Shown here in pieces: positions 3,458-64,000 of a stretch of 64,000 bases of DNA (the stretch's first letter is position 1; each line of letters starts with the position of its first letter). The DNA is from a virus (lineage: Duplodnaviria > Caudoviricetes), in the IMG/VR virus record IMGVR_UViG_3300028832_000095, positions 137,896-201,895 of that record. One strand, 5' to 3'. The notes below the pieces were generated by a model. The model did not search any database. It was not told where the DNA came from and saw only the letters and a program-made list of their open reading frames with translations. The translations under genes and the position numbers were made by a program.

Positions 3458-3487
3458 TTGACAAATCTCCTGATAATATGTTATAAT
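3458..3487 (+). promoter_or_regulatory. sigmaA/sigma70-type promoter
   Basis: TTGACA-18nt-TATAAT with extended -10 TG and A-rich upstream element. Confidence 0.8.
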
Positions 3488-18804: not shown

Positions 18805-19428
18805 ATGATTCTAATTCTATGCGGTAAATCCGCAAGTGGTAAAGATACAATCCTAAATGATTTTATTCAAGATGGGTTTGTTCATAAGATTGTATCCTAC
18901 ACAACAAGACCTAAAAGAGATGGCGAAGTAAACGGAATTGATTATAATTTTGTTACAGAACGTCAGTTCATTGACATGATGAATGAAGGATTGTTCTTCC
19001 AAACAAGACAATATAATACAAATGTTAATGGACATCTTGATACTTGGTATTATGGATCGAAAAAGGTAGAAATTGATAAAAATATTCATTTTGGTTGTAT
19101 TGTTGATATGGGTGGAGTTAGAGATTATGTGAATACATACGGTAAAGAAAATGTGTTTGTTGTTTATGTTGATGCTCCGGATGAAATACGAAAACAGAGA
19201 TGTATCAAGCGTGGATCTTTTGATGAAACTGAATGGAACAGACGATTAGAGGATGACACAATTAAATTTGATATCAACAATCCAGAAGTATATAATCTAA
19301 TCAATAGGGTTGTTGAAAACACCGGAGATATCCGTGATGCTAAATTTGAAATCTCTTATGATTTTTATAACTACATCATGGATAGATATAAAAATGAAAA
19401 TCATACACGTTTTGGAGGAAACAAATGA
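18805..19428 (+). CDS. gmk: guanylate kinase
   Basis: GKSASGKDT P-loop; SYTTRPKRDGEVNGIDYNFV signature; WYYG. Confidence 0.9.
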   Translation: MILILCGKSASGKDTILNDFIQDGFVHKIVSYTTRPKRDGEVNGIDYNFVTERQFIDMMNEGLFFQTRQYNTNVNGHLDTWYYGSKKVEIDKNIHFGCIVDMGGVRDYVNTYGKENVFVVYVDAPDEIRKQRCIKRGSFDETEWNRRLEDDTIKFDINNPEVYNLINRVVENTGDIRDAKFEISYDFYNYIMDRYKNENHTRFGGNK

Positions 19429-19610
19429 AAGTATCAACTAAAAAGAAGATGGGTGAACTCAAAGAATACCTTGAAGAACTTGGTCTGTTTATCTGGCAAC
19501 TTAATCAGAAGGATGATGAGGAACTGAAAGAACTTGCTAAAAAGATGCAACTCTGCTATACTGTATGTATGAAGCAGATCAAACAAATCACCAAGGAGGA
19601 ATTTGAATAA
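19425..19610 (+). CDS. hypothetical protein
   Basis: GGAGG RBS, ATGA overlap. Confidence 0.6.
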   Translation: MKVSTKKKMGELKEYLEELGLFIWQLNQKDDEELKELAKKMQLCYTVCMKQIKQITKEEFE

Positions 19611-20059
19611 TGTATCTGGTATCAAAACGACATAAGTTGTTTAATGATCCACCTGAAAATCTTAAAGTATTTCAAACAGAATCCGCAGCATTATCATTTA
19701 TAAATAGCCTTGTATCAGATAGCGATTATGTGTACTGTATGACAGAAATTCGCAGTGGTAATGATTATCATATGCACTATGGATATCGGTATAGAGTATA
19801 TGTTACATGGCATATGATATATTTCTGTGTTGAAAGAGTTGAAGTTCTTGACAGATGTGAGATTAAAAATGATTGTTTATATCTTACAAATGTAAAGAAA
19901 GATGATTATGAATTCTGTTTTGAGATTGAAACAATGTATGAACTTCATACAGATGAATGGATTGAAAGTCATGGATATTGTAGCAGTACAATTTCAGACG
20001 ATATACTCAGACAGAATAAACTTCCGAGGTTGATTGAAAAGTTATATTCAATTAAATAA
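19610..20059 (+). CDS. hypothetical protein
   Basis: AGGAGG RBS, TAATG overlap. Confidence 0.7.
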   Translation: MYLVSKRHKLFNDPPENLKVFQTESAALSFINSLVSDSDYVYCMTEIRSGNDYHMHYGYRYRVYVTWHMIYFCVERVEVLDRCEIKNDCLYLTNVKKDDYEFCFEIETMYELHTDEWIESHGYCSSTISDDILRQNKLPRLIEKLYSIK

Positions 20060-20079
20060 TTACTTTATGGTGATTAAAT

Positions 20080-20520
20080 ATGATTAAATTATATGTCGAA
20101 AGACGAAAGAGGTTATCAGAAAGTCTTGATGCCCCGTGTGAAGGGATATTTTGGATTATTGATAATGAACTAATCGCATACACAGATCAGGTTGATACAT
20201 CTGGAAAATTATCTACCACTCTTGAACATAGGAAGATATGGAATGAGATTAAAGATAAGTACACAGATGATGAAATGCAATTAGTTCCTTATGATTATTA
20301 TCCTCGTGGAAGAGTTATGGTGAATCCTATTTATAAAGATGGGAAGTTCGATCACTATAATGCATATATTTATATGGATGAATGTATCAAAACATATGAA
20401 AACATAACTGATATAATCTATGAGTTTAGGCTTAAAAATAATTGTGATATTAAGTATGTTGGTTCATCTGGTGGTGTTGAATCAGGTCATTATGTATGTC
20501 ATAACTGCAAAGGAGGATGA
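20080..20520 (+). CDS. GIFW/H..W/PRGRV-family protein with KLxxE leader
   Basis: MIKLYVE leader; GIFWII..LEHRKIW..YDYYPRGRV; paralogs at 60216 and 60733. Confidence 0.75.
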   Translation: MIKLYVERRKRLSESLDAPCEGIFWIIDNELIAYTDQVDTSGKLSTTLEHRKIWNEIKDKYTDDEMQLVPYDYYPRGRVMVNPIYKDGKFDHYNAYIYMDECIKTYENITDIIYEFRLKNNCDIKYVGSSGGVESGHYVCHNCKGG

Positions 20521-52020: not shown

Positions 52021-53010
52021 ATGATGAAACTTGTGTTTGAAGATTTTGAAAGCACAACTTCTATTGGAACAGAAGATAATCCTCTTTCAGTTTTTGAACA
52101 AGGGGATTTTGTGCAATACGGTGATTATGTCGATATAGCATCTGCTATGGAACCAATTGCAGATGCATCAAGTGTATACGAAGATTTAGAAGCTATTGGA
52201 TTTGTACTTATGTTAGCATCTAACGATATTCATACAATTCATATCAATGCCCACGGTAAGGATTTTACAAGACTTCACCTTGAAACAGATGAATTGTATA
52301 AACAGTTAAATGAGTACAGCGATACTTGCTTAGAGATGTGTTGTGAGGATGGACACTTTATTCACAATCTCAACAATGCAAAAGATTGCTTAACTCAGTG
52401 GAGTATTGAAGTTCCTGACTGTGAAGGTTTTACTCTTATAGACGGGATTCGTGTTACAACGGAAATTCTTAATAATGTTATTGTTGCTATTTCAGAGGTA
52501 TATAATGATTGCACAACAGATGTTCAGTCTACATTAGATGAGTGGTTACGCTATCTAAATTCTAAGATGAACTATTTCCTCGGAAGAATTTTACAGGAAA
52601 GCAAAAAGCGTACAAATGAAAGTATGATGAACAGAAACACAAGACATGATAAAAAGAAATGTGTTTGTGAACATCTTGATTATCTGAAATTAGGTCAGCC
52701 TTATAAGATGTTCTGTCAGGTGGAAGACCATATTGATGATTATAATTGTGATACTGTTTCACTTAAACCGGGTGATTTCATTATAAGAGATTTCCAATTT
52801 GGTCACTTGCCAAACGGAGGAAATAAAGGTTATATACCATATGAAGTAATTGATATTGAATATGATAGAGATGATGATAACGGCGGTTATTGGGATGCAA
52901 GAAAAAGACTTCACCTTTATGACGGAGAAGAAGATTTCTACATTGAGTGCTATAATGAAAGATTCAATGGTATGTTCCATAAACTGAAAAAGAGTTCTGT
53001 TAAGGAGTGA
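52021..53010 (+). CDS. Dps/ferritin-like domain fused to a second module
   Basis: HINAHGKDFTRLHLETDELY..SDTCLE resembles the Dps ferroxidase signature; MMKLVFE leader. Confidence 0.65.
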   Translation: MMKLVFEDFESTTSIGTEDNPLSVFEQGDFVQYGDYVDIASAMEPIADASSVYEDLEAIGFVLMLASNDIHTIHINAHGKDFTRLHLETDELYKQLNEYSDTCLEMCCEDGHFIHNLNNAKDCLTQWSIEVPDCEGFTLIDGIRVTTEILNNVIVAISEVYNDCTTDVQSTLDEWLRYLNSKMNYFLGRILQESKKRTNESMMNRNTRHDKKKCVCEHLDYLKLGQPYKMFCQVEDHIDDYNCDTVSLKPGDFIIRDFQFGHLPNGGNKGYIPYEVIDIEYDRDDDNGGYWDARKRLHLYDGEEDFYIECYNERFNGMFHKLKKSSVKE

Positions 53011-53016
53011 TCTACT

Positions 53017-53250
53017 ATGAAAATAATGGGAGAAGAATTTTTTGATAAGGATGATTTTTCTTCCTTAGTACGAGACATTTATGATATGTTAAACGAAATA
53101 GAAAAAAGATCCCGTAAATATGAAAAATCCATTCGAACTGAAATTCGACTTGGTTTTGATCCAGACCCACAGGACGATGATCTAAAGAAACTAGACTTTA
53201 TTCATAACAACCTACTCGGTATTATAGAAGAGCTTGATGAAAGGGAGTAA
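53017..53250 (+). CDS. hypothetical protein
   Basis: AAGGAG RBS. Confidence 0.65.
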   Translation: MKIMGEEFFDKDDFSSLVRDIYDMLNEIEKRSRKYEKSIRTEIRLGFDPDPQDDDLKKLDFIHNNLLGIIEELDERE

Positions 53251-53256
53251 TTTATT

Positions 53257-53817
53257 ATGACTGAGTATGTAGCAGAAACAAGGATTTTTCTAAAAGAATA
53301 TACAGACGAAAGAGTAGATTATTATTGTGAAAAAGGTTATGTACCTACTGAGGAAGAAGTTATTGTTGACATTTATGAAGATCTAACTCCTATGTCTTAT
53401 GACGAAGCACAATTATATAATCGTTCTGGAGTAGAAATTCTAAGTGTTGACGATTTAGCAAAGAACATTCAAAATCTAGTTTCTTTCAATCTAGATGAAA
53501 TTGATGAAAGCCTCAAACTTAAAATTCGTGAAGAGGTGGAATATACAGATACTATAGACGCTATCTATGATATCCTAAAAAGAAAATATAGAAACGATGA
53601 TAGATTTGTAGAAATTAAAGTAGTAAATAAACCAAGAAGAGCGGTTCATGTTGAAACAGAAAAAGAAATCGAAGACGGAGAAACCTTTAATATGGACAGA
53701 TATATCTATGTAGATGATTCTGATAGAATCACTATGGTTTCAAAAGATGATAAAACAAGAAAATTCGTAGATGTCGAAGCCGTTTCAGATTTCTTTGACG
53801 AATATCTAAATTCATAA
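53257..53817 (+). CDS. acidic two-module protein
   Basis: internal IDESLKLKIREE. Confidence 0.7.
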   Translation: MTEYVAETRIFLKEYTDERVDYYCEKGYVPTEEEVIVDIYEDLTPMSYDEAQLYNRSGVEILSVDDLAKNIQNLVSFNLDEIDESLKLKIREEVEYTDTIDAIYDILKRKYRNDDRFVEIKVVNKPRRAVHVETEKEIEDGETFNMDRYIYVDDSDRITMVSKDDKTRKFVDVEAVSDFFDEYLNS

Positions 53818-53821
53818 GGTC

Positions 53822-54046
53822 GTGACTAAATTGATATGTAAACATTGTGGGTGCGAAACATCTACTGTAATTTGTCATAATTGTGGAATCAATGTTGTTT
53901 GGTATAATAAATACGGTCAGTTAAACGATGATATTGAATCTGGGGAACTTGATCTTCTTTCGTATCTCAACAAAGATTCCACAGAAAAACCTAAAATAGA
54001 GGAAGTTGTAAAAGAAGTATTTAATCCAGATGGTTCTGGAGATTAA
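53822..54046 (+). CDS. zinc-ribbon protein
   Basis: CKHCG..CHNCG. Confidence 0.6.
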   Translation: MTKLICKHCGCETSTVICHNCGINVVWYNKYGQLNDDIESGELDLLSYLNKDSTEKPKIEEVVKEVFNPDGSGD

Positions 54047-54065
54047 GAAAGGGTGTAAAACTATT

Positions 54066-55103
54066 ATGGATACATACGAGATTATCTACGATTATTGTGA
54101 TGAAGACGGTTACGAGGAAACAGATTGTTCTGAAGAGTTTACTGGCACTTGGTCTGAGTTACAGGATTATATTAAAAAAATGAGAAGAAATGGTTGTTAC
54201 AACATTGATGCTAATTCTATTACGCAAGGTTTCGAAGAAAATGACTATTATGAGTCTGTTAGAAAACCTATGAAACTTAGAATAACGGAATCCGAAGAGT
54301 CCCTATGTGATAAAGTAATGGAAGTAAATGATAATGCTGGTTTCTGGACTAGAGAAGATGAGTTCGTCGAAGATATGGAAAATGCTGGACTAGAAGTCAC
54401 TGAATTCAATTATGAATATGCAACTATTGAAGATGATGACGAATGGTGTCAAGTAGATTTCATTAGAGCTAACGATACATTTACTATCGGAAATATTCGT
54501 AGGTGTGAAGAAAAGACTTGGGAAGAAAGTTATAGTATTAAGGAAGCATTTAGCAGTGATGATGATTTAGAAGATCTTATACAGTCCTTTGAACAGGAGT
54601 ACGATAGTTCTGTAACATCTATCAACTCTGCAAAACTTCCAACTATTTTTGGACTTGTTCAAAAACTCGGAGGGTTTAAGGAAGGAACTATGAATTTGGA
54701 TTTTGGTGGAGGTCGTTTTGATAATGTTGCACAATATCTAAAAGATTATGATGTCCTAAACTTAGTATACGATCCTTTCAACAGAACAAAAGAACATAAC
54801 AAAGATGTATTAGATTTTGTAAAGAAAAACGGCGGCGCTGATACTGTTACATGCTCAAATGTTCTTAATGTCATTAAAGAGCCCGAAAATAGACTTGCTG
54901 TGATTAGGAACTGTGATAGACTTGTAAAATCTGGTGGAACTGTTTATTTTACAGTATATGAAGGTTCTGGTTCCGGAGAGGGTAAGGCAGACGATAAGAG
55001 AAAGTCTTATCAAACAAATATGAAAACGGCAGATTATCAGTCTGAGTTAGAACAAGTATTTTCCGATGTTAAGAGAAAAGGAAAATTATTTATTTGTAAA
55101 TAA
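54066..55103 (+). CDS. three-module protein ending in a class I SAM-dependent methyltransferase
   Basis: NLDFGGGRFD, YDPFN, VTCSNVLNVI, GGTVYFTVYEG; linkers YESVRKPMKLRITES and WEESYSIKEA. Confidence 0.8.
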   Translation: MDTYEIIYDYCDEDGYEETDCSEEFTGTWSELQDYIKKMRRNGCYNIDANSITQGFEENDYYESVRKPMKLRITESEESLCDKVMEVNDNAGFWTREDEFVEDMENAGLEVTEFNYEYATIEDDDEWCQVDFIRANDTFTIGNIRRCEEKTWEESYSIKEAFSSDDDLEDLIQSFEQEYDSSVTSINSAKLPTIFGLVQKLGGFKEGTMNLDFGGGRFDNVAQYLKDYDVLNLVYDPFNRTKEHNKDVLDFVKKNGGADTVTCSNVLNVIKEPENRLAVIRNCDRLVKSGGTVYFTVYEGSGSGEGKADDKRKSYQTNMKTADYQSELEQVFSDVKRKGKLFICK

Positions 55104-55140
55104 TAAATATTTATTAAAACAAAAATATTTATAAATACTA

Positions 55141-55169
55141 TTGACAAATCTATATAATTGTGTTATACT
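55141..55169 (+). promoter_or_regulatory. sigmaA-type promoter
   Basis: TTGACA-17nt-TATACT with TG extension. Confidence 0.85.
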
Positions 55170-55217
55170 ATATTTAGTGTAACACAATTATATAGGGGTA
55201 GAAAGGAAGAAAATATT

Positions 55218-55469
55218 ATGATTAGACTAATTAGAGAAAATGAAGATAAGTGGTTTCAGGATACTTTAACAGTTGTTCTTGATTATTTTAATAAAAAGCA
55301 ATGGGATACTAATATTCCAGAAGTCATGAATTATGCAGAAGCCGTTGCAGAACAACTCAATAGAGACCCTGATTGGATTGACGGTAATTATACTATAAGA
55401 GATTGGTATAGAGATACATATAGAAATTATCCAGAAGAGATTGAATGGTTAGATTCTACGACTTACTGA
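55218..55469 (+). CDS. hypothetical protein with MIRLIRE leader
   Basis: AAGGA RBS. Confidence 0.7.
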   Translation: MIRLIRENEDKWFQDTLTVVLDYFNKKQWDTNIPEVMNYAEAVAEQLNRDPDWIDGNYTIRDWYRDTYRNYPEEIEWLDSTTY

Positions 55470-55493
55470 TATTAAAATAAAAGAGGTGTTATT

Positions 55494-56156
55494 ATGATTA
55501 AAATTATCAAAGAATCCTATTCCTATGATAACCAAAGAATAATGGATATACTGGATAAAATTGAATTTACTAACGATGATAGGAAAATCAATAAAGCATA
55601 TGATTTTGTAAATCATGCTTGCAGTAATATTGATGATTGTATAGAAAGTGGTTTTTATGATTTATCCGAAGCTGATTGGGCATACGGTACAGATTATATT
55701 ATTGAAGAACTTACTGATATTTTGAATGAATCTACTAGCAGATCTGTCTATACTAAAAGATCAAAAGGTAGAAGAGTTGTGGAATCTACAAATGGTAATA
55801 GAATGGTAATCACAGTTTCTAGTGGAATTAGTGCAGATGGTTTCAGTATTACTGTCACAGATAGACAAGATAACGTAGTATTCAAAGATTCTTATAGCTA
55901 TGGTTACAATGCCAGCCACGATAGAAAGTATGCAGAGTTTGCTCATAATGATGTTGTTAATGCCAAAAAGTATGGTTGGAAAGGTAGTTATACAGAACAA
56001 CCTTATGTAACAGATATTATAAATGATCTTCTCACAAAGTACAATATAGATAAGGAAGATATAGAGGTTACATCCGGAAGAAATACTTTTAGAGGGCAGA
56101 ATGTAGATTCTAAAGATGTAGATAGATTTGTTGATAAATATATCTCTCAACTTTGA
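55494..56156 (+). CDS. two-module protein with MIKIIKES leader
   Basis: internal ILNES..KGRRVVES. Confidence 0.75.
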   Translation: MIKIIKESYSYDNQRIMDILDKIEFTNDDRKINKAYDFVNHACSNIDDCIESGFYDLSEADWAYGTDYIIEELTDILNESTSRSVYTKRSKGRRVVESTNGNRMVITVSSGISADGFSITVTDRQDNVVFKDSYSYGYNASHDRKYAEFAHNDVVNAKKYGWKGSYTEQPYVTDIINDLLTKYNIDKEDIEVTSGRNTFRGQNVDSKDVDRFVDKYISQL

Positions 56157-56180
56157 TGTATTGGAAAGAAGTGATCAAGT

Positions 56181-56744
56181 ATGAAACTTATATTTGAAGG
56201 TAAAAATAAATACCGTGTATGGTATAGACCTTATTCATATCCAGATGAAGAAGATTTTATTGATGTTACAGCAAATACAGAACAAGAAGCCGTAGAATTT
56301 GCAAGAACATTAGGGTATGAAACAGAAGTGGAATTAAAAGAAGAATCTATTACAGAGGGTGTCGAAAACAAAGATATAATGGATCTTCTTACTTCTGAAA
56401 GAGTAGATCTTATGATCAAAGCATGGCAAAATTTAACAGGTTCCCTTAGCATGGAAAAGTGTTTACAGTATTTTGAAAAACTTGGTTACGATTGTTCTGG
56501 GTATACTAATGAAGAATTTAATCGTGTTTGGGATTTAGCTTGTGATGAATTTGATAATAGATATGGTGTCGAAGAAGAGGAAGAGGATTCCGTTGATGGA
56601 ATCGAAACCAAAGAAGATGCTTATCGTTGGTTACAAGATAAATTAGAAGAGTATGGAAATACATATCATTTTCCAAATGAGGACAGATATAAGTTAGACA
56701 GACTTATTGATAAGTTTGGTTCTACTTATTTCTGGAGAAGATAA
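56181..56744 (+). CDS. acidic multi-module protein with MKLIFE leader
   Basis: internal LKEESITEG. Confidence 0.75.
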   Translation: MKLIFEGKNKYRVWYRPYSYPDEEDFIDVTANTEQEAVEFARTLGYETEVELKEESITEGVENKDIMDLLTSERVDLMIKAWQNLTGSLSMEKCLQYFEKLGYDCSGYTNEEFNRVWDLACDEFDNRYGVEEEEEDSVDGIETKEDAYRWLQDKLEEYGNTYHFPNEDRYKLDRLIDKFGSTYFWRR

Positions 56745-56769
56745 TAATAGAAAGGAGCTGTATTGAACA

Positions 56770-56988
56770 ATGATTAAACTTAAAGATTTTTGTAATTCTG
56801 TCAACCTCAATACAACTTTAAATGTTTATATTAAAGGTGAGGATGAACCTACATATCAGTATATCACTGCCTATGAACTTAAACAGGAAGTTCCAAAACT
56901 TGCCAGAGAAATTGGTCTTCGTTATATTTGTATGATTGACTGTTTGGATAAAGATGTTGATATGTCTATTGAACTTTGTACGGGTTGA
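56770..56988 (+). CDS. MIKLKDF-family small protein
   Basis: paralog of 58078 and the 58317 N-terminus. Confidence 0.7.
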   Translation: MIKLKDFCNSVNLNTTLNVYIKGEDEPTYQYITAYELKQEVPKLAREIGLRYICMIDCLDKDVDMSIELCTG

Positions 56989-56999
56989 GGTGTTTTAGT

Positions 57000-57472
57000 A
57001 TGATTAAACTTATAATGGAAAATTTAAGTGACAAAGATCTTCTAGACCAATTAAATTCATTAACTAGGTATGAGGGGTCAGGAAAATTCCTTACAAGGAA
57101 ATAAAGGTATGGGAAAAGATATTGAACCAATTTGATGTTGGAACCGTTATTGCTATGGACACACACGGGGGTTATGAATGTTTTTATAAGGTTTCTGATG
57201 AGTACGATGGATGGAAACACGCCTGTCTGCACCCACCACATATTTCGGTTGTTACAACTTTTGATGTAGCGAGGAATTTGGGCGGCAGCGCATGGGTGAC
57301 AGATAATAAGAATTTTTATTTGGACAGTTTGGAGAAGTTTGAAAAGATAGCGGACTTATATTATCACAGGGATTCAAATGCTGGATCAGGCTATAATTTT
57401 TTTTTGGACCCTCTGATAAAAGAAATTTTGGTCAAAAGAAAGGTTTTTATGGATTTTAATAGCCTGGGTTGA
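57000..57472 (+). CDS. hypothetical protein with MIKLIME leader, apparent frameshift in G4 run 57074-57077
   Basis: GAGG RBS before ATG 57000; one added G joins the downstream open frame. Confidence 0.55.
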
Positions 57473-57512
57473 ATTTACCTACAGAATTATAGAGAAAGGA
57501 ATTTTAATTACT

Positions 57513-58055
57513 ATGAAACTTATTTTTGAAAAAAGACTAACCCCGGAGGAGGTTTATTCCCTTTCTAAGGGTCAGTGTTATGATTTTGAAGAATATGTAG
57601 AAGATAATTTAATGAGTTTTTATGACTATGAAATCCCAGAAGATTTTCATCTTTGTTCTTTTTCTGAATATAAAAAGATAAGTGATAAACTTGAAAGATT
57701 TTTGAAAAGTAAGAAAATTGATTTAAGTTACGATAGTATGAATCTTCCTTATTTCGGGATTAAAATTGGTGGAAATTCGGGTGGTATTGCCAGTGATTTT
57801 CTTAGAGGGATAATTAAGATTTCATGGAAACAAATTAACTTAGGTGAATTAGATAATATTCAAATAAATAAAGTATATACAAGAGATAAGTATGGTTTTT
57901 GTGTTCCAGCAACACCTAGAGAAATTAAAATTGTAAACTCTTTTCAAGATGTTGGAATTGGTTCTCGGGCATCTGTAATAGAAACGAAAACAAAATTGTA
58001 TGTAGATGATGACAATAATATCCTTGTTTCTACTTCTTCCTTTACATGGGATTAA
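57513..58055 (+). CDS. hypothetical protein with MKLIFE leader
   Basis: 180 aa. Confidence 0.75.
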   Translation: MKLIFEKRLTPEEVYSLSKGQCYDFEEYVEDNLMSFYDYEIPEDFHLCSFSEYKKISDKLERFLKSKKIDLSYDSMNLPYFGIKIGGNSGGIASDFLRGIIKISWKQINLGELDNIQINKVYTRDKYGFCVPATPREIKIVNSFQDVGIGSRASVIETKTKLYVDDDNNILVSTSSFTWD

Positions 58056-58077
58056 AAAAATATTGAAGGTGATAACT

Positions 58078-58299
58078 ATGATTAAACTTAAAGATTTTAT
58101 TGATATGTGTTCTATATCGTTTCTTTTATATGTCTATGATACAGATGACCAATTAGAAGATAGTGTTTGGAACGGATATTCTGTCAACCTTTTAAAGGAT
58201 CTTGATAACAGAGATTTATTGGACTGTTATATTACAGAGTGGGGAATGACTGACGAAGGTACTAATGAATTTATTATCTGGGTTAATGTTGAAAGATAA
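58078..58299 (+). CDS. MIKLKDF-family small protein
   Basis: AGGTGA RBS. Confidence 0.7.
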   Translation: MIKLKDFIDMCSISFLLYVYDTDDQLEDSVWNGYSVNLLKDLDNRDLLDCYITEWGMTDEGTNEFIIWVNVER

Positions 58300-58316
58300 A
58301 AAAGAGGTGTTTTAGT

Positions 58317-59099
58317 ATGATTAAACTTAAAGAGTTTTTAGATACTTGTGATTTTGTTCCTTATTTAACTATTTACACTCTAGAAGAGGAAGGTCCTGTT
58401 TTTGAAGGGGATGCAAAATTACTTTATAAGCGTCCGGCATACAAACAGCTTTTGACATCCTCTATTGAAAATTGGGGAAACTCTACCGACATTAGAGATC
58501 GCATGGCTTTTTGGGTTACACTTGATGTTATCGATTTTATTCCTTTTGATGAAAGTTACAAATCAAAGGAGAAATTAGCGATTAAAGAGTCCGATGATAA
58601 AATCACGGCAAAGAATTTTCAAGAGCTTATTGATAAGCTAGAAGATCATGGGTACTCCTGTGGACATTATTATGATGTTGATTGTCCAGATGATAATTGG
58701 CTTTATATCACTAAAAATGGGGATCCCTACGAAGCAGAGTTTTACAGATACAGTGATGGAGAGTATGAACTTTATTTAAGAAATATTCATCCCACAAAGG
58801 AAAGAACAGAAGGATGTCACGGAAAGAAAACGAAAAAGAAGTCTAAAAGAATAAAGGAAGATTCTTATGATGATATTCTTCAACCCAAAACATTTTATAT
58901 AAGAGATGTATGGGATGATGATTTATACGATATTAACGATTATGCTGAAACACTAGGTTTTTCTATGGATCAATTTGAATATGATGGAAAAGATCTTAAA
59001 ATAACTTACGATGCCTATGACAGATTAGGTTATGAAAAATGTGCTAAACTGTATAACTGGTATATAGAAAATATTTATCCGGAACACGAGGAGTATTGA
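58317..59099 (+). CDS. three-module protein
   Basis: MIKLKEF module; linkers FDESYKSKEKLAIKES and RTEG..KKSKRIKED. Confidence 0.75.
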   Translation: MIKLKEFLDTCDFVPYLTIYTLEEEGPVFEGDAKLLYKRPAYKQLLTSSIENWGNSTDIRDRMAFWVTLDVIDFIPFDESYKSKEKLAIKESDDKITAKNFQELIDKLEDHGYSCGHYYDVDCPDDNWLYITKNGDPYEAEFYRYSDGEYELYLRNIHPTKERTEGCHGKKTKKKSKRIKEDSYDDILQPKTFYIRDVWDDDLYDINDYAETLGFSMDQFEYDGKDLKITYDAYDRLGYEKCAKLYNWYIENIYPEHEEY

Positions 59100-59100
59100 T

Positions 59101-59586
59101 ATGCTAAAACACGTTATGAAAAGCTGGTATGCTCATAACTCTAATTACAAAGAATGGGAAGATAAGGTCCTTAAATATATGAACAAGGAAGAATTTGAGG
59201 ACCTTATATTCTTCCTCAAAGATTTGTATAATAGAGAAATTGGAATAGATAGTTATGTATTAAAGTTTGATTCTTTAACAAATAAGATCTCCTTTATATC
59301 TACTCCGGATTGGGATACTGAGAATGAACCTACTGTTGGTGATTCTATTTGTGCTTGGGTAGATGATAATGGAGAATTTCAGGCAAAGAAAATTAAAGGA
59401 AAGAATCAAATTTATCATAACAAGTGGCAATTCGTTCAACCTAACTATTCTGGCTTCGATGTAGAAGCCGCCAAAGAAAGAACAGATCTTTGGAATTCAA
59501 TTTCAGACATTAACAAACATAAATCCAGAATAGGATATAGAAGTTATTGGAATCAATTATTAAATGATAATGGAATTCCACTATGA
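59101..59586 (+). CDS. hypothetical protein resembling the C-terminal domain of phosphorothioation-associated methyltransferases
   Basis: KISF..PDWD..EP..S..IYHNKWQFV..Y..SRIG....W. Confidence 0.55.
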   Translation: MLKHVMKSWYAHNSNYKEWEDKVLKYMNKEEFEDLIFFLKDLYNREIGIDSYVLKFDSLTNKISFISTPDWDTENEPTVGDSICAWVDDNGEFQAKKIKGKNQIYHNKWQFVQPNYSGFDVEAAKERTDLWNSISDINKHKSRIGYRSYWNQLLNDNGIPL

Positions 59587-59597
59587 AGGGTGATTTT

Positions 59598-59936
59598 ATG
59601 AAACTACGAATTAAAGAATGGACAAAGGTAACATACTCAAAATCTAAGAAACACACCGAAAAAATATTGCTCGGAAGTGGTAAATTATGTATTAGACCAC
59701 TATGATATTCCAACAGCTATTTATTATGATAAAGTCTCTTGGGAAAATATGCTGGGAATTATGGCATTTCTATACCAAATATAACTGATGAAGATCTAAG
59801 AAATACTATTGTAAGAGATGTAAAAATTTATTTCAGACAAAGGGATATTATAGTAAGAATTTATAGTTCTGGTACCACGGTTAGAATATATGTAAAACCT
59901 TATGACACTGGTAAAAACATAAGTGATGATATTTGA
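59598..59936 (+). pseudogene. MKLRIKE-leader gene broken by two compensating indels
   Basis: one extra A in A6 59659-64 and one missing base near 59741-47 restore a continuous ORF. Confidence 0.5.
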
Positions 59937-59984
59937 GATTGATAGTAGGAAGAATGTTAAATATCTAAAATTATTCAAAACCAC

Positions 59985-60013
59985 TTGACATTTCTCTTAA
60001 TATGTGTTATACT
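59985..60013 (+). promoter_or_regulatory. sigmaA-type promoter
   Basis: TTGACA-17nt-TATACT with TG extension. Confidence 0.85.
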
Positions 60014-60067
60014 ATATTTACAAAAGTATATTTGAAAATATGAACATATATCTGGGAGGAAATAATT

Positions 60068-60199
60068 ATGTTGAAATATGGTATCTACACTATTGAATAC
60101 TGGACACGGTTACCGTTAAAAGATCCAATGACTATTGCAAAGTGGATAGATATTGACGTTAAACCTGATTTTGAATCTGACAACTTGGAAGATGTGTAA
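60068..60199 (+). CDS. 43-aa early peptide (not in ORF track)
   Basis: GGGAGG RBS; first ORF after the promoter. Confidence 0.6.
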   Translation: MLKYGIYTIEYWTRLPLKDPMTIAKWIDIDVKPDFESDNLEDV

Positions 60200-60215
60200 T
60201 ATCGGAGGTGATTAT

Positions 60216-60713
60216 ATGAAACTCAGAATTCCAGAAAGTTCGGATTGGAATACAAACACAAAGAATGAAAAAATAAATTTCATCAGAACTATAATGAAAG
60301 AGGATAATGATTATGTTGGTGACCCTTGTGTTGGTATTTTTTGGTATGATTCAAATAAAAAAGAATTATTTGGGGTTCGTTCGAATATCGCAGAAGATAC
60401 GCAGTATCATCTATCCCCTATGACACACCAAGAGATTAGAACAACAAAATTTTTGCACTATTCTGTATGGCAAAAAGAATGCAATAAAAAAGTTGATCAA
60501 AGATTTCAAACAATGGACTATACCAAGTATCCAAGGGGTAGGGTTTTTCAAGTTAAGAATAAGGGATTTGAAGTCTATGTTGGAACATGGATTAACGATT
60601 ATCCGGAGTGTAAATCCTTAGTTATTGAAGAATTTGATTTACCAGATAATACTGAATTTATTATTGATTCCCATTGGGATCTTGGTCATGGTTGGTCAGA
60701 CAAAGACTTTTAA
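60216..60713 (+). CDS. GIFW/H..W/PRGRV-family protein with MKLRIPES leader
   Basis: GGAGGTG RBS; VGIFWY..LHYSVW..YPRGRV. Confidence 0.8.
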   Translation: MKLRIPESSDWNTNTKNEKINFIRTIMKEDNDYVGDPCVGIFWYDSNKKELFGVRSNIAEDTQYHLSPMTHQEIRTTKFLHYSVWQKECNKKVDQRFQTMDYTKYPRGRVFQVKNKGFEVYVGTWINDYPECKSLVIEEFDLPDNTEFIIDSHWDLGHGWSDKDF

Positions 60714-60732
60714 TCATATTTGGTGATATTTT

Positions 60733-61164
60733 ATGATATTAAAAGAAAGTCCTGTATATCCATATGAAGGATATTTTTGGATAATAAATAATGAAGTTAT
60801 AGGTATAACCTCAGAAGTACCACACTATAATTACGACTATTCCCTGAACGGTAAAACACATCAAAATACATGGAGTAAGTTTAGTAAAGATTATTTGGTT
60901 GGTGGTAAAGAAGTTGCTTGGGATTACTTTCCTCGCGGCAGAATTATGATTGATCCAAATTATGACTTGAATGGTAAGTTTGAAGATTATTCCTGTATAG
61001 TGTTTTTGGATAAGTGCATAAATAATGTCCAATGCAAACAATTGATTACAGATTATTATAATTTGGACTTGCTAACGATTCCACATATTATGTGGACTAT
61101 GCTTGGAGAACGGGCAGGAATAGATCATTATACTTGTCATAATTGTAAAAATGGAGGATTTTGA
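60733..61164 (+). CDS. GYFW/H..W/PRGRI-family protein (close paralog of 20080)
   Basis: EGYFWII..THQNTW..WDYFPRGRI..HYTCHNCK. Confidence 0.8.
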   Translation: MILKESPVYPYEGYFWIINNEVIGITSEVPHYNYDYSLNGKTHQNTWSKFSKDYLVGGKEVAWDYFPRGRIMIDPNYDLNGKFEDYSCIVFLDKCINNVQCKQLITDYYNLDLLTIPHIMWTMLGERAGIDHYTCHNCKNGGF

Positions 61165-61165
61165 T

Positions 61166-61492
61166 ATGAGTGATGAAGTAATCAGATTTTTGCTTAATAA
61201 TTATTTTTCGGATAAGTTTGCAGAAACAGATGATGTTTATATTAGGGTATTTGAGATGTGCTCTAATTGTGGTAATTTATGGTCATTAAGTATTTACAAT
61301 AATGGTGATTGGCTTATTACCAATGAGTTTTCACAACCATGTTGGCAAAATGGTTATAATGTAATACATCAAGACAACAAATTCAAGATAGAAAATGTAC
61401 CTTGGTTTAGTAAAGAAATTCCGGAAAAAGTATCTACTATTAAAGATGTTGAAATTCTAATAAAATTTGTAGAGTCCTATAAACACAATTAA
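61166..61492 (+). CDS. hypothetical protein
   Basis: GGAGG RBS; CSNCG. Confidence 0.65.
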   Translation: MSDEVIRFLLNNYFSDKFAETDDVYIRVFEMCSNCGNLWSLSIYNNGDWLITNEFSQPCWQNGYNVIHQDNKFKIENVPWFSKEIPEKVSTIKDVEILIKFVESYKHN

Positions 61493-61507
61493 GGAGTTGG
61501 TTTATTT

Positions 61508-62176
61508 ATGAAACTGATTATCAAAGAAGAAAAATATGATCTTTCTTGGAAAGAACATGATGTAAAAATGAGAGTTGATGGAGAAATGGGAACATATCCG
61601 TCATATGCAAAAAGAGTTGGAAATTTAGTAGTAAACATTGACCCGGAGGTATTCAATAATGGAGAATTTGGATATACTGTTTACTATACTCCGCATATCG
61701 GTAAAGCAGGATTTAAGAAATCTGAATCTGGTTTTATGAATAGTTCTGAAGCTATTGATTATGCGGATACATATATTTTTGGTGCTGATGATTTTTATGA
61801 ATCAACATACTATAAAGGTGGAAAAGAATCTATTAAAACAGAGGGTTTTGGAATTGAGGATGCTCCGGGACTTTATAAACGTATATATAAAATAATTAGT
61901 GATAATCATATAAATGCTGATATTGTAGATACAGATGATAGTGATGATTATGGTTTTGTTGAACTTGATGTTGACGGCGACTGGAAGCATGATCACCTTA
62001 GATTAAAGTATCTGCTTAATCAGGCATTTAATACTGTTATCTGGAGAGAAAAAGAAAACTTCCCTAGTGATGAAGATTGTTTTAGAGCAATATATATGGT
62101 ATATCTAGCTGATCCTAAAGACGATTCTTATACAGAATCCGTAAGAAAAAGAATCAGATCTAAAAGGAAATCTTAA
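61508..62176 (+). CDS. two-module protein with MKLIIKEE leader
   Basis: linker FYES..KESIKTEG; basic tail YTESVRKRIRSKRKS. Confidence 0.75.
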   Translation: MKLIIKEEKYDLSWKEHDVKMRVDGEMGTYPSYAKRVGNLVVNIDPEVFNNGEFGYTVYYTPHIGKAGFKKSESGFMNSSEAIDYADTYIFGADDFYESTYYKGGKESIKTEGFGIEDAPGLYKRIYKIISDNHINADIVDTDDSDDYGFVELDVDGDWKHDHLRLKYLLNQAFNTVIWREKENFPSDEDCFRAIYMVYLADPKDDSYTESVRKRIRSKRKS

Positions 62177-62223
62177 GAATAATATTAAATAACTTATTTT
62201 TGAATGTAAGGGAATGAATTATT

Positions 62224-63300
62224 ATGATTAAACTATTTATGGAAAACGATTATTCAGAAACAGATGAATTTACTCTTATTAAAGAGATGAATCACTGGAT
62301 CAACTACCTAAAGAAATTCTTTGTTGATGATAAGAAAGCTCAAAAAGTTATTGCTGATTATTTCTACTACGATGATGGCGCTCATCAAGAAGACTTCAAA
62401 GAGCTTCAATCAACTGTAAAAACTCTCAGAAAATTGTGGAAGAAGTTAGATGCTATTACAGAGGATGCGGAAGAAAAAGAATATAAAGAGAAGAATAAAA
62501 AAGAATCCTACAAAAGACTTCATGAACAGGATGTAGAGATAGAAGTAAAACACGAAGGCATTCTTGAGGTTCCGGAAGGAAAGAATGTAGATGATCTTCC
62601 TATGTCTCATTTCGAGAAACTTGTAAAGAAAAATGGTCTTTCTAAAATTACAAAAGCTCTGAATAATTTACAAGTTTGGAATAAGAATGATAATAAAAAA
62701 CTTTCTAAATGGGCAGGAGATATGATTGATAAACTTACTAAAAAATATGGTAAGAATGAATCAATTTCCGTAAAGAGATTCAATGAGGGTTGGCATAATG
62801 GAGATGCAATTATAACATTTACACATAACGATGATCTTGAAGCCGATCTTGAAGAATTCCTATTTGATATCTTCAAAGATAATCCAGACGTATTTGATTT
62901 CGATTGGTCTGGAAGTAATACAAACTTATATCTGGCTTGTAATAAAGATGATTATGACTACATTAAATGGTTTATAGAGGATTGGAAAGATAAGCACAAA
63001 GATGAATATGATGAATCCTTGAAAGAAGATACATATAAATCATATTGGAAATATGATGTTGAAAGCCCTGTACTTAATAGAAATGAAGATAGTGACACAT
63101 ATCTTACAAAATACGACATAAAGAAGGTTAAACTAATTCCTTGTAAAACCCCAGAAGAATGTTACGAGGATGAAAGATATTGGGCTGTTTGTAATTACGA
63201 CTATCCACACGATGAATTTTATGGAACAAAACAAGAAGCATATGATATGTTATTAACATCATGGAACAACTCAACATATGAAAGAATTCATGATATTTAA
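62224..63300 (+). CDS. four-module protein with MIKLFME leader
   Basis: linkers KESYKRLHEQ, KNESISVKRFNEG, YDESLKED. Confidence 0.75.
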   Translation: MIKLFMENDYSETDEFTLIKEMNHWINYLKKFFVDDKKAQKVIADYFYYDDGAHQEDFKELQSTVKTLRKLWKKLDAITEDAEEKEYKEKNKKESYKRLHEQDVEIEVKHEGILEVPEGKNVDDLPMSHFEKLVKKNGLSKITKALNNLQVWNKNDNKKLSKWAGDMIDKLTKKYGKNESISVKRFNEGWHNGDAIITFTHNDDLEADLEEFLFDIFKDNPDVFDFDWSGSNTNLYLACNKDDYDYIKWFIEDWKDKHKDEYDESLKEDTYKSYWKYDVESPVLNRNEDSDTYLTKYDIKKVKLIPCKTPEECYEDERYWAVCNYDYPHDEFYGTKQEAYDMLLTSWNNSTYERIHDI

Positions 63301-63318
63301 GAATGGGTGGTGTATTAG

Positions 63319-64000
63319 ATGAAACTATTTATTGAAGAATATCCAAAACAGACAATACACAAAACAGATGAGTCCTTGAAAGAAGACTATATCAATATAG
63401 ATGGAGTTTATTATGATGATTATGAAATCTATAGAGAATACCATGATCTTATTAGATCAGACATAGTGAGCAAATTGCATGGAATATATTATGATGTCGG
63501 TGGAAACGAAGATGAATTTGTTATCGAAGCATTAGATAATGGTTTCTCTAAATTAGACATAGCGGCATTTCTTATGTATGCTGTAGAGGATAGTCTTTCT
63601 TTAAGAGAAATTAAAGCATTGTTTAAGTCATTAAATGTAAATTTAAAAGAATCCGGAATGTATGATTATTATGATACACCAAATAGTGCTTTTGATATGC
63701 ATAATGATATGCCTACACCGGAAGATGAATGGTGGGCTTCAATTCCATCTGAATTAAGAGCAGTTGTTCATGAGATGGAAGAACAAGGTTGGGAAGGTGT
63801 TGGATTTACGACAACTGGTGTTGATTATTGTATTTCCACCGAGGATAAAAATAGACCTGAACTATCATATGAAATGTGTATAAGCATTCATGACGGGGAT
63901 GATTCAGTATATCTTTCTAAATATGTTGATATCTTTGATTGGGATAAGGAAAAAGAAGTTTCCAGTATTCCAAATACATCCGGAGTAACTATTCAGAACT
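63319..64000 (+). CDS. acidic multi-module protein with MKLFIEE leader (runs off window end)
   Basis: open frame from ATG 63319 to the end; TDESLKED and NLKES motifs. Confidence 0.75.
   Translation, partial: MKLFIEEYPKQTIHKTDESLKEDYINIDGVYYDDYEIYREYHDLIRSDIVSKLHGIYYDVGGNEDEFVIEALDNGFSKLDIAAFLMYAVEDSLSLREIKALFKSLNVNLKESGMYDYYDTPNSAFDMHNDMPTPEDEWWASIPSELRAVVHEMEEQGWEGVGFTTTGVDYCISTEDKNRPELSYEMCISIHDGDDSVYLSKYVDIFDWDKEKEVSSIPNTSGVTIQN

Follow-up and report, generated by a model that had tools for sequence, protein, structure and literature searches.

Shuffled acidic modules joined by basic, glutamate-bounded linkers in an uncultured T4-like phage: candidate substrates of the prohead protease

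We describe here a set of modular proteins encoded by an uncultured phage of the gut or rumen with a genome of ~200 kb (IMG/VR record IMGVR_UViG_3300028832_000095), in and next to the stretch of 64,000 nucleotides (positions 137,896 to 201,895 of the record) that we call the window. In the region studied, window 52-64 kb together with genome 0.7-6.2 kb, small acidic domains (modules) are joined within single open reading frames (ORFs) by short basic linkers with a glutamate at either border, and the modules are shuffled among related phages. This modular anatomy and the domain shuffling are established by computation. The explanation that we favour, and regard as probable on convergent, indirect evidence, is that in each unit a leader is followed by an acidic domain and then by a basic tail, that the leaders act like the capsid-targeting sequences of T4, and that the head protease cuts after each Glu in the prohead. 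The link of the linkers to the head protease is consistent; cleavage, packaging and an effector role are what we infer.

The portal protein of the phage is nearest to those of Streptococcus phage vB_SagM-GXN1 (GXN1), Listeria phage LIS04 and Bacillus phages SP-15 and HSE3 (30-38% identity), and the portal of T4-like phages is more distant. From these affinities we take the phage to be a remote T4-like myophage whose host is a Gram-positive bacterium of low G+C.

Results

Basic linkers divide the proteins into acidic modules

A linker begins where a domain ends in x-x-Glu and continues with Ser (at times Gly or Cys), 2-20 mainly basic residues and a hydrophobic-x-Glu, after which the next domain starts; a vertical bar in the motifs marks the proposed cut point after Glu. 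The linkers are basic and have a median length of 12 aa, while the modules are acidic, with a median isoelectric point of about 4.4. Such x-E-S/basic/leader linkers inside ORFs had been proposed in an initial annotation of this DNA, and all the examples cited there are present in plus-strand ORFs, displaced by at most ~25 nt. We found additional linkers at 52591-52623 and 56337-56360, at two C-terminal ends and, in one case, past the window end. The genes and linkers concerned are the following (window positions; genes are named below by their first position).

52021..53010, + strand: two-module gene; leader MMKLVFE, Dps-like module, C-terminal module
52591-52623, + strand: linker LQE|S-KKRTNE|S in the 52021 gene
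53257..53817, + strand: two-module gene; linker IDE|S-LKLKIRE|E at 53500-53535
54030..55103, + strand: three-module gene; module D (YEIIYDY...), middle module, S-adenosylmethionine (SAM) methyltransferase domain
54246-54293, + strand: linker YYE|S-VRKPMKLRITE|S in the 54030 gene, holding a fossil Met
54519-54548, + strand: linker WEE|S-YSIKE|A in the 54030 gene, before the methyltransferase
55494..56156, + strand: two-module gene; leader MIKIIKE|S, linker LNE|S..basic..VVE|S at 55722-55787
56181..56744, + strand: two-module gene; leader MKLIFE|G, YRVWY module, second module
56337-56360, + strand: short linker KEE|S-ITE|G in the 56181 gene
58078..58299, + strand: stand-alone relative of 58317 module 1; N-terminus MIKLKD-F; BLASTP 30.6% over 72 aa, E = 1.5e-5
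58317..59099, + strand: three-module gene; module 1 residues 1-79, module 2 residues 92-165, module 3 residues 182-260
58545-58592, + strand: 58317 linker 1, FDE|S..IKE|S, from E79|S80 to E91|S92
58803-58862, + strand: 58317 linker 2, RTE|G..IKE|D, from E165|G166 to E181|D182
60216..60713, + strand: single-module gene; leader MKLRIPE|S
61166..61492, + strand: single-module gene; C-terminal FVE|S and a 4-residue tail at 61466-61489
61508..62176, + strand: gene with leader MKLIIKE|E; linker FYE|S..KE|S-IKTE|G at 61793-61846
62129-62173, + strand: C-terminal YTE|S and basic tail, end of the 61508 gene
62224..63300, + strand: four-module gene with three linkers
62497-62529, 62752-62790 and 63007-63030, + strand: the 62224 linkers KKE|S..LHE|Q, KNE|S..FNE|G and DE|S-LKE|D
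63319..64000, + strand: last gene, leader MKLFIE|E; first 227 of 373 aa, the rest in genome 1-576
63364-63387, + strand: joint TDE|S-LKE|D in the 63319 gene

The 63319 gene holds a further linker, TKE|S..basic..IDE|G, past the window end. Two details of the initial annotation stood only in part. The two DES-LKED joints, thought to be near-identical in DNA, are both present and share only 20 of 22 nt. The MIKLK[DE]F unit was said to exist both in stand-alone genes and within 58317; the 58078 gene is a true relative by BLASTP, whereas 56770 is similar over the first 20-30 residues only.

The motifs are more frequent than composition predicts. Hydrophobic-x-E-S occurs 17 times in the 22 proteins of 52-64 kb versus 6.6 expected (P = 5e-4), and its observed/expected ratio in the remaining genome is 1.4. 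For the composite linker pattern we counted 10 occurrences versus 2.9 +/- 1.5 in residue shuffles, none of 200 of which reached 10, and 3 in reversed sequences.

Pfam and PHROGs searches of the region's proteins were mostly empty, a Methyltransf_23 domain and the Dps-like module being the only recognisable ones. The former is the methyltransferase domain of 54030 (30.1 bits, cut-off 27); the latter corresponds to residues 53-189 of 52021, which match phrog_3636 (E = 1e-9) and give weak Dps matches in the Protein Data Bank (PDB). The Dps-like match stops 2-4 residues ahead of the linker's first site. The 54030 ORF probably starts at the 13th codon (about 54066), as in the homologue P0065.

Linkers acting as internal starts or translated ribosome-binding sites were considered and rejected, as linker DNA is generally devoid of Shine-Dalgarno-like runs and start codons. 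A fossil start Met is retained in some linkers only.

Boundary glutamates are conserved outside the predicted folds

We folded one protein, 58317, in two AlphaFold2 predictions, each from a partial alignment. Residues 92-161 and 186-257 were predicted with a pLDDT (predicted local distance difference test) of 86-94, residues 48-91 and 162-185 fell below 50, and module 1 was weakly predicted. All four proposed sites, E79, E91, E165 and E181, lie in the low-confidence segments. Independent domains with disordered linkers, which the initial annotation had anticipated, are therefore what structure prediction gives for modules 2 and 3, and the motifs are found in predicted disordered segments of 58317 rather than inside folded domains.

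In one global MAFFT alignment of the 58317 homologues, which set module 3 onto module 2, hardly any variation is seen at E91 and E165; two separate alignments were made in its place, and in one of these E181 does not vary at all. No positions are better conserved than these boundary Glu residues, though they lie outside the fold and the copies are below 50% identity. A Foldseek search of the PDB with module 2 returned nothing at E <= 0.001, and the ESM Atlas gave generic small alpha/beta look-alikes only.

Modules are shuffled among related phages at the linkers

An exhaustive profile-free search with the 58317 protein yielded 38 cluster representatives. Modules 2 and 3 are found in these 38 proteins (87-950 aa) either on their own or at the start, the centre or the end, and with varied neighbours; proteins of 99, 93 and 87 aa hold one of them alone. 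The alignments of the homologues start exactly at the hydrophobic-x-Glu of the linker. What precedes module 2 (23 proteins) is either an N-terminal leader, 'M...hydrophobic-x-E-S/A/Q/N', or a linker, 'E-S + basic + hydrophobic-x-E-S'. What follows it is 4-6 residues, then Glu-Ser/Gly/Cys and a basic stretch, even where the protein ends there. The flanks of module 2 are thus alike in both settings, indicating that a linker is made up of two parts, the basic tail of the preceding unit and the leader of the following one.

The methyltransferase domain of 54030 (window 54534-55103) is very widespread: at E <= 1e-5 we obtained 671 homologues, almost none of them named, and the proteins range from 196 to 625 aa. 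Copies sharing 85-93% identity follow different N-terminal modules in proteins that range from 201 to 410 aa; one homologue consists of a leader and the methyltransferase alone, and in another, P0066, an entire 53257-type protein is fused ahead of the methyltransferase domain. Module D of 54030 is leader-bearing in P0010 and P0029, and the YRVWY module of 56181 recurs in P0003, P0012, P0013, P0024, P0056 and P0065.

Three loci of related phages, L005, L007 and L009, display the same exchanges gene by gene. The C-terminal module of 52021 is a separate gene with its own leader in L005:3895-4284, and in L009 the second module of 56181 likewise forms a gene of its own, with a leader. The window gene 47496, which stands alone, is in L007 the rear part of a fusion with a leucine-rich-repeat protein, joined via '...TE|S-LKLYISE|D'. 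Relative to L007, the third module of 62224 is an insertion placed exactly between '...KNE|S' and 'LKE|D', and module 2 of this protein recurs in P0020 and P0021 behind other linkers. The gene at L007:12446.. shares its leader and last module with the 63319 gene and has a different middle. A search for related loci with P0039 and P0020 found none.

The notion of modules that recombine like beads on a string, put forward in the initial annotation, is thus shown directly by fusions, fissions and an insertion exactly at the motifs in the three loci, as well as by the 38 and 671 homologues. Module combinations vary from protein to protein, and the boundary Glu is invariant or nearly so.

A distant homologue, P0039 (950 aa), is made of many domains joined by I/T-A-R-R-N-K-K/R-A linkers that lack Glu sites. 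Polyproteins divided by linkers may also be present in other phage lineages that use different proteases.

Leaders are constrained as protein and recur across the clade

Leaders of the form M-K/I-L-x-hydrophobic-x-Glu are found on ~26 otherwise unrelated proteins of this genome, and BLAST within the region gave one paralogous pair only. The DNA upstream of the leader genes is unrelated and the leader codons vary, while the residues are kept, which places the constraint on the protein. A DNA-level cassette or promoter carrying the leader was rejected for the same lack of resemblance upstream, and because the Leu codon of the leader is just the most frequent one.

In L009, nine consecutive genes begin with MKL-x-I-x-E, and leaders are also present in L005 and L007. 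The homologues of 60216 in L005 and L009 retain a hydrophobic-x-E leader of different sequence. Cultured phage GXN1 carries MRL-I/V-R/K-L-x-E-D/S on 7 small proteins, 6 of the 7 within the structural block, and its scaffold and capsid protein bear L-x-E|S/A sites. All seven GXN1 leader proteins, whose genes start at positions 98803, 122094, 132585, 132841, 134401, 143096 and 144003 of that genome, are single units; thus, concatenation seems to be peculiar to the rumen-type lineage to which the window belongs.

The linker signature is shared with presumed substrates of the head protease

The genome encodes a prohead protease with a Peptidase_S77 (PF03420) match at genome 11139-11630 (50.7 bits, cut-off 27). 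It also matches phrog_207 (4e-40) and aligns to T4 gp21 (PDB 5JBL, E = 2e-5). The residues that we take to be the catalytic His and Ser of T4 gp21 (..ELDHPE.., ..VSSRG..) are conserved in the query, the alignment itself labelling no catalytic residues. The protease domain, about residues 1-170 of the protein encoded at genome 11130-12836, is fused to a coiled-coil scaffold of ~400 aa. It is the only protease that we found, no search having been aimed at a second protease gene; an HK97-type protease (PF04586) is absent from the genome, and neither Pfam nor PHROGs revealed a peptidase domain in the region's proteins.

We ranked the 320+ proteins of the genome by their excess of hydrophobic-x-E-S. 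The protease-scaffold protein ranks first (12 versus 1.9 expected, P = 7e-7), a protein of the head block at genome 19053-20210 (385 aa) second (6 versus 0.8) and the window protein 55494 third. The 19053 protein contains the same linker as the window proteins, '..FEE|SV + basic ... YKE|S', its C-terminus reads '..SE|SVRRRRK', and the capsid protein has 'RIAE|SVQKKK' at residue 31. Sites made of ES, then V/Y/I/L, then at least three Lys/Arg number 19 in the genome, and 7 of them lie in the protease-scaffold, 19053 and capsid proteins, which account for 2% of residues. Another 7 of the 19 are in the window cluster at 50-64 kb and 2 in other leader-bearing proteins. A strict leader regular expression was compared with the 'ES + basic' sites and gave no significant association (2 of 12, P = 0.18); it misses several evident leaders.

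The head-block protein at 19053-20210 (mostly in L002:19053-20000) also has a very acidic centre and a zinc-ribbon-like CxxC...CxxC. Neither PHROGs nor Pfam places it in a family, and it may represent a new type of core or internal protein of the head.

Genome setting, promoters and neighbouring genes

The virus contig is 201,895 bp long, and the window is its final 64 kb. The contig ends are identical over 136 nt (window 63865-64000 equals genome 1-136); the assembly is circular or terminally redundant, its source label being linear and 84% complete. Given this overlap, the last window ORF is whole and runs on into genome 1-576, encoding 373 aa. The G+C content is 31%, and every gene is on the + strand. 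After the region, in circular order, follow a long ORF (genome 6324-8750, 808 aa) that is probably the terminase, the portal gene, the protease-scaffold fusion and an intron-split capsid gene. The large terminase of a related phage (L005:7152-9977, 941 aa) has apparent intein-like insertions. We found no DNA similarity of the region to any of ~50,000 phage records, and the methyltransferase protein (54030) has matches in two distant phage records only.

By k-mer enrichment and mapping we located strong host sigma-A-type promoters, two of them within the region:

55161..55173, + strand: extended -10 box TGTTATACTATAT of a host sigma-A-type promoter, with a TTGAC -35 box just upstream
60005-60017, + strand: -10 box of a second sigma-A-type promoter

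They belong to ~37 near-identical sigma-A-type promoters genome-wide (cTTGACa, 17 nt, TGTTATACTATAT), those of the window being at 3479, 5242, 11365, 15505, 18761, 24195, 29678, 44026, 45654, 55161 and 60005. All ~37 lie outside the structural block (1.7-43 kb) and none inside. By their sequence and placement, these promoters mark the early and middle part of the genome.

Two further features of the region were noted. A 35-codon ORF at window 59598-59705 consists of a perfect leader, MKLRIKE, and a short basic stretch; it may be the remnant of a cargo gene, or a unit of leader plus tail without a domain. A paralogous family, GIFWY...HWDLGHGWSD, has five genome copies (window 60216-61164, genome 70891, 110389 and 158212), with leaders on some copies only, and it matches no known family.

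Discussion

In T4, the protease gp21 cuts after Glu at hydrophobic-x-Glu and strips a capsid-targeting propeptide of 10 residues from diverse internal proteins (PMC3012670, PMC9026906). In the case of Alt, T4 removes propeptides from both ends, one of 6 residues at ITE-6 and one of 63 at LTE-619 (PMC5694885). By the mechanism that we favour here, the leader, like the T4 capsid-targeting sequence, would bring the precursor to the scaffold core of the prohead, where the gp21-type serine protease fused to the scaffold would cut after each Glu at both ends of every linker. This would free the separate domains, including the Dps-like DNA-binding module and the SAM methyltransferase, together with short basic peptides. 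The products would remain in the head with the DNA and would probably be delivered at the next infection. Since each unit would bear its own signals, fusion, fission, insertion and swapping at the joints would all yield functional products, which would explain the extreme mosaicism. That the modules serve as 'mini-effectors', as the initial annotation put it, is speculation.

Several observations weigh against this explanation. The loosely defined motif is only moderately enriched, about 2.6-3.4-fold. At the upstream site, P3 is often not hydrophobic (K, R or T in ~40%), so that this may not be a true cut site; the downstream site is more canonical. Some leaders have Asp, or are without the Glu, as in MIKLKD-F of 56770 and 58078 and MDTYE of 54030. 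T4 internal proteins are basic and help to balance the charge of the DNA; the modules described here are strongly acidic, which is awkward for retention beside packed DNA. The literature that we searched contained no virion proteome of this phage or of GXN1, LIS04, SP-15 or HSE3. Finally, judging from the promoter sequences, the cluster genes look at least partly early. This last point is not decisive against a role in the head, since T4 produces IPI-III abundantly in the early phase and again in the late one (PMC6071114).

The host-type promoters within the cluster also fit a different account, which we consider unlikely: that these are early cytoplasmic accessory proteins, neither packaged nor cut, and that leaders and linkers are recombination joints upheld by repeated copying. 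A joint with 20 of 22 nt in common is used twice in the window and again in L007 without the inserted module, fossil start Met residues persist inside linkers, and the location of the proteins in the virion is one that we infer. Against this account stand leader residues that are kept despite differing codons and upstream DNA, and a boundary Glu that is invariant in copies below 50% identity and lies in disordered segments. Moreover, the E|S-V-basic signature is found in the scaffold, in the head-block protein and in the propeptide of the capsid protein, none of which is subject to shuffling, and the leader genes of GXN1 lie in the structural block.

A second alternative accepts cutting of the precursors in the prohead and reverses the roles of the products: the basic peptides would be the useful ones, as counter-ions of the DNA in the manner of T4's small internal peptides, and the acidic domains disposable neutralising carriers that leave with the scaffold fragments. 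Packed DNA should indeed repel acidic domains, linkers and tails are consistently basic, and stand-alone modules retain a basic tail after E|S or E|G; in T4, core fragments and propeptides do leave the capsid (PMC5694885). The basic segments, however, have a median of only 12 aa and show little conservation of either length or sequence, whereas the domains are well conserved (85-93% for the methyltransferase), diverse and folded, enzymes among them, and it is the domains that shuffle. We therefore give this alternative little credence.

Least probable of all is cleavage at these sites in the cytoplasm by another protease of host or phage, in the manner of RNA viruses and with no link to the capsid: it agrees with the early-type promoters and with conserved Glu sites in disordered linkers, but the S77 prohead enzyme is the only protease found (again, with no dedicated search for a second), the HK97 type is absent, and the site signature fits the presumed S77 substrates, namely the scaffold, the head-block protein and the capsid protein.

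The closest known parallel to prohead cleavage of leader-bearing cargo is provided by T4 IPI, IPII, IPIII and Alt, which share with the present system a gp21-family protease and a short N-terminal propeptide (6-10 residues in T4) that ends in hydrophobic-x-Glu and stands on unrelated, fast-evolving proteins. T4 cargo consists of single, mostly basic units, whereas here acidic domains are concatenated through two-site basic linkers and reshuffled, a picture drawn from sequence data alone. Pfam and PHROGs detected no homology to IPI, IPII, IPIII or Alt among the region's proteins.

In phiKZ, 201phi2-1 and SPN3US, which have an S80 prohead protease, many head proteins are likewise cut after Glu at a short motif; their head and ejection proteins have propeptides with several sites, and paralogues share N-terminal propeptides (PMC5694885, PMC9026906). 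The motif there is S/A/G-x-E, in contrast to hydrophobic-x-E|S here, and long propeptides are cut from single mature proteins; swappable strings of domains are not described in those phages.

Polyvalent proteins (Iyer et al. 2017, PMC5512222) are also multidomain, mosaic and shuffled, and are predicted to be packaged or delivered with the DNA and in some cases processed. They are, however, large, with recognisable enzymatic or anti-defence domains and often their own metallopeptidase (zincin-like MPTase) (PMC5512222). The proteins of the window have tiny domains, mostly of no known family, a uniform linker that matches the head protease, and no peptidase domain that we could find. Polyproteins of RNA viruses and retroviruses, such as Gag-Pol, are single products of several units with sites for the virus's own protease, cut during particle maturation. 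They bear no evolutionary relation to the present proteins, which would be accessory cargo of a double-stranded DNA phage and whose units also occur as separate genes. Our literature search found no paper on concatenated, reshuffled cargo separated by head-protease linkers.

A broader proposal, that a clade of uncultured T4-like Firmicutes phages possesses a general 'cargo cassette' system, we advance tentatively, as somewhat short of an even chance. In such a system any small domain with a leader and a basic tail at its sides would be loaded into the prohead, released by the head protease and injected along with the DNA, and cargo would evolve by exon-shuffling-like fusion, fission and insertion at the joints. 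The system would occupy about one tenth of the genes of this phage, and its basic peptides would double as counter-ions.

Even without confirmed cleavage, the strict modular grammar and the shuffling are a clear example of how accessory genes of phages evolve at the level of domains. If prohead cleavage of these units is correct, the capsid-targeting principle of T4 would extend to a large group of Gram-positive and rumen phages, which would have a natural route for placing many small proteins in one capsid from few genes. The fast diversification of the cargo would be explained as well, each domain carrying its own address and cut sites. The arrangement of leader, domain and tail would offer a design rule for loading foreign proteins into phage heads, and the dozens of small acidic domains would become candidates for factors of host takeover in the first minute of infection or of anti-defence.

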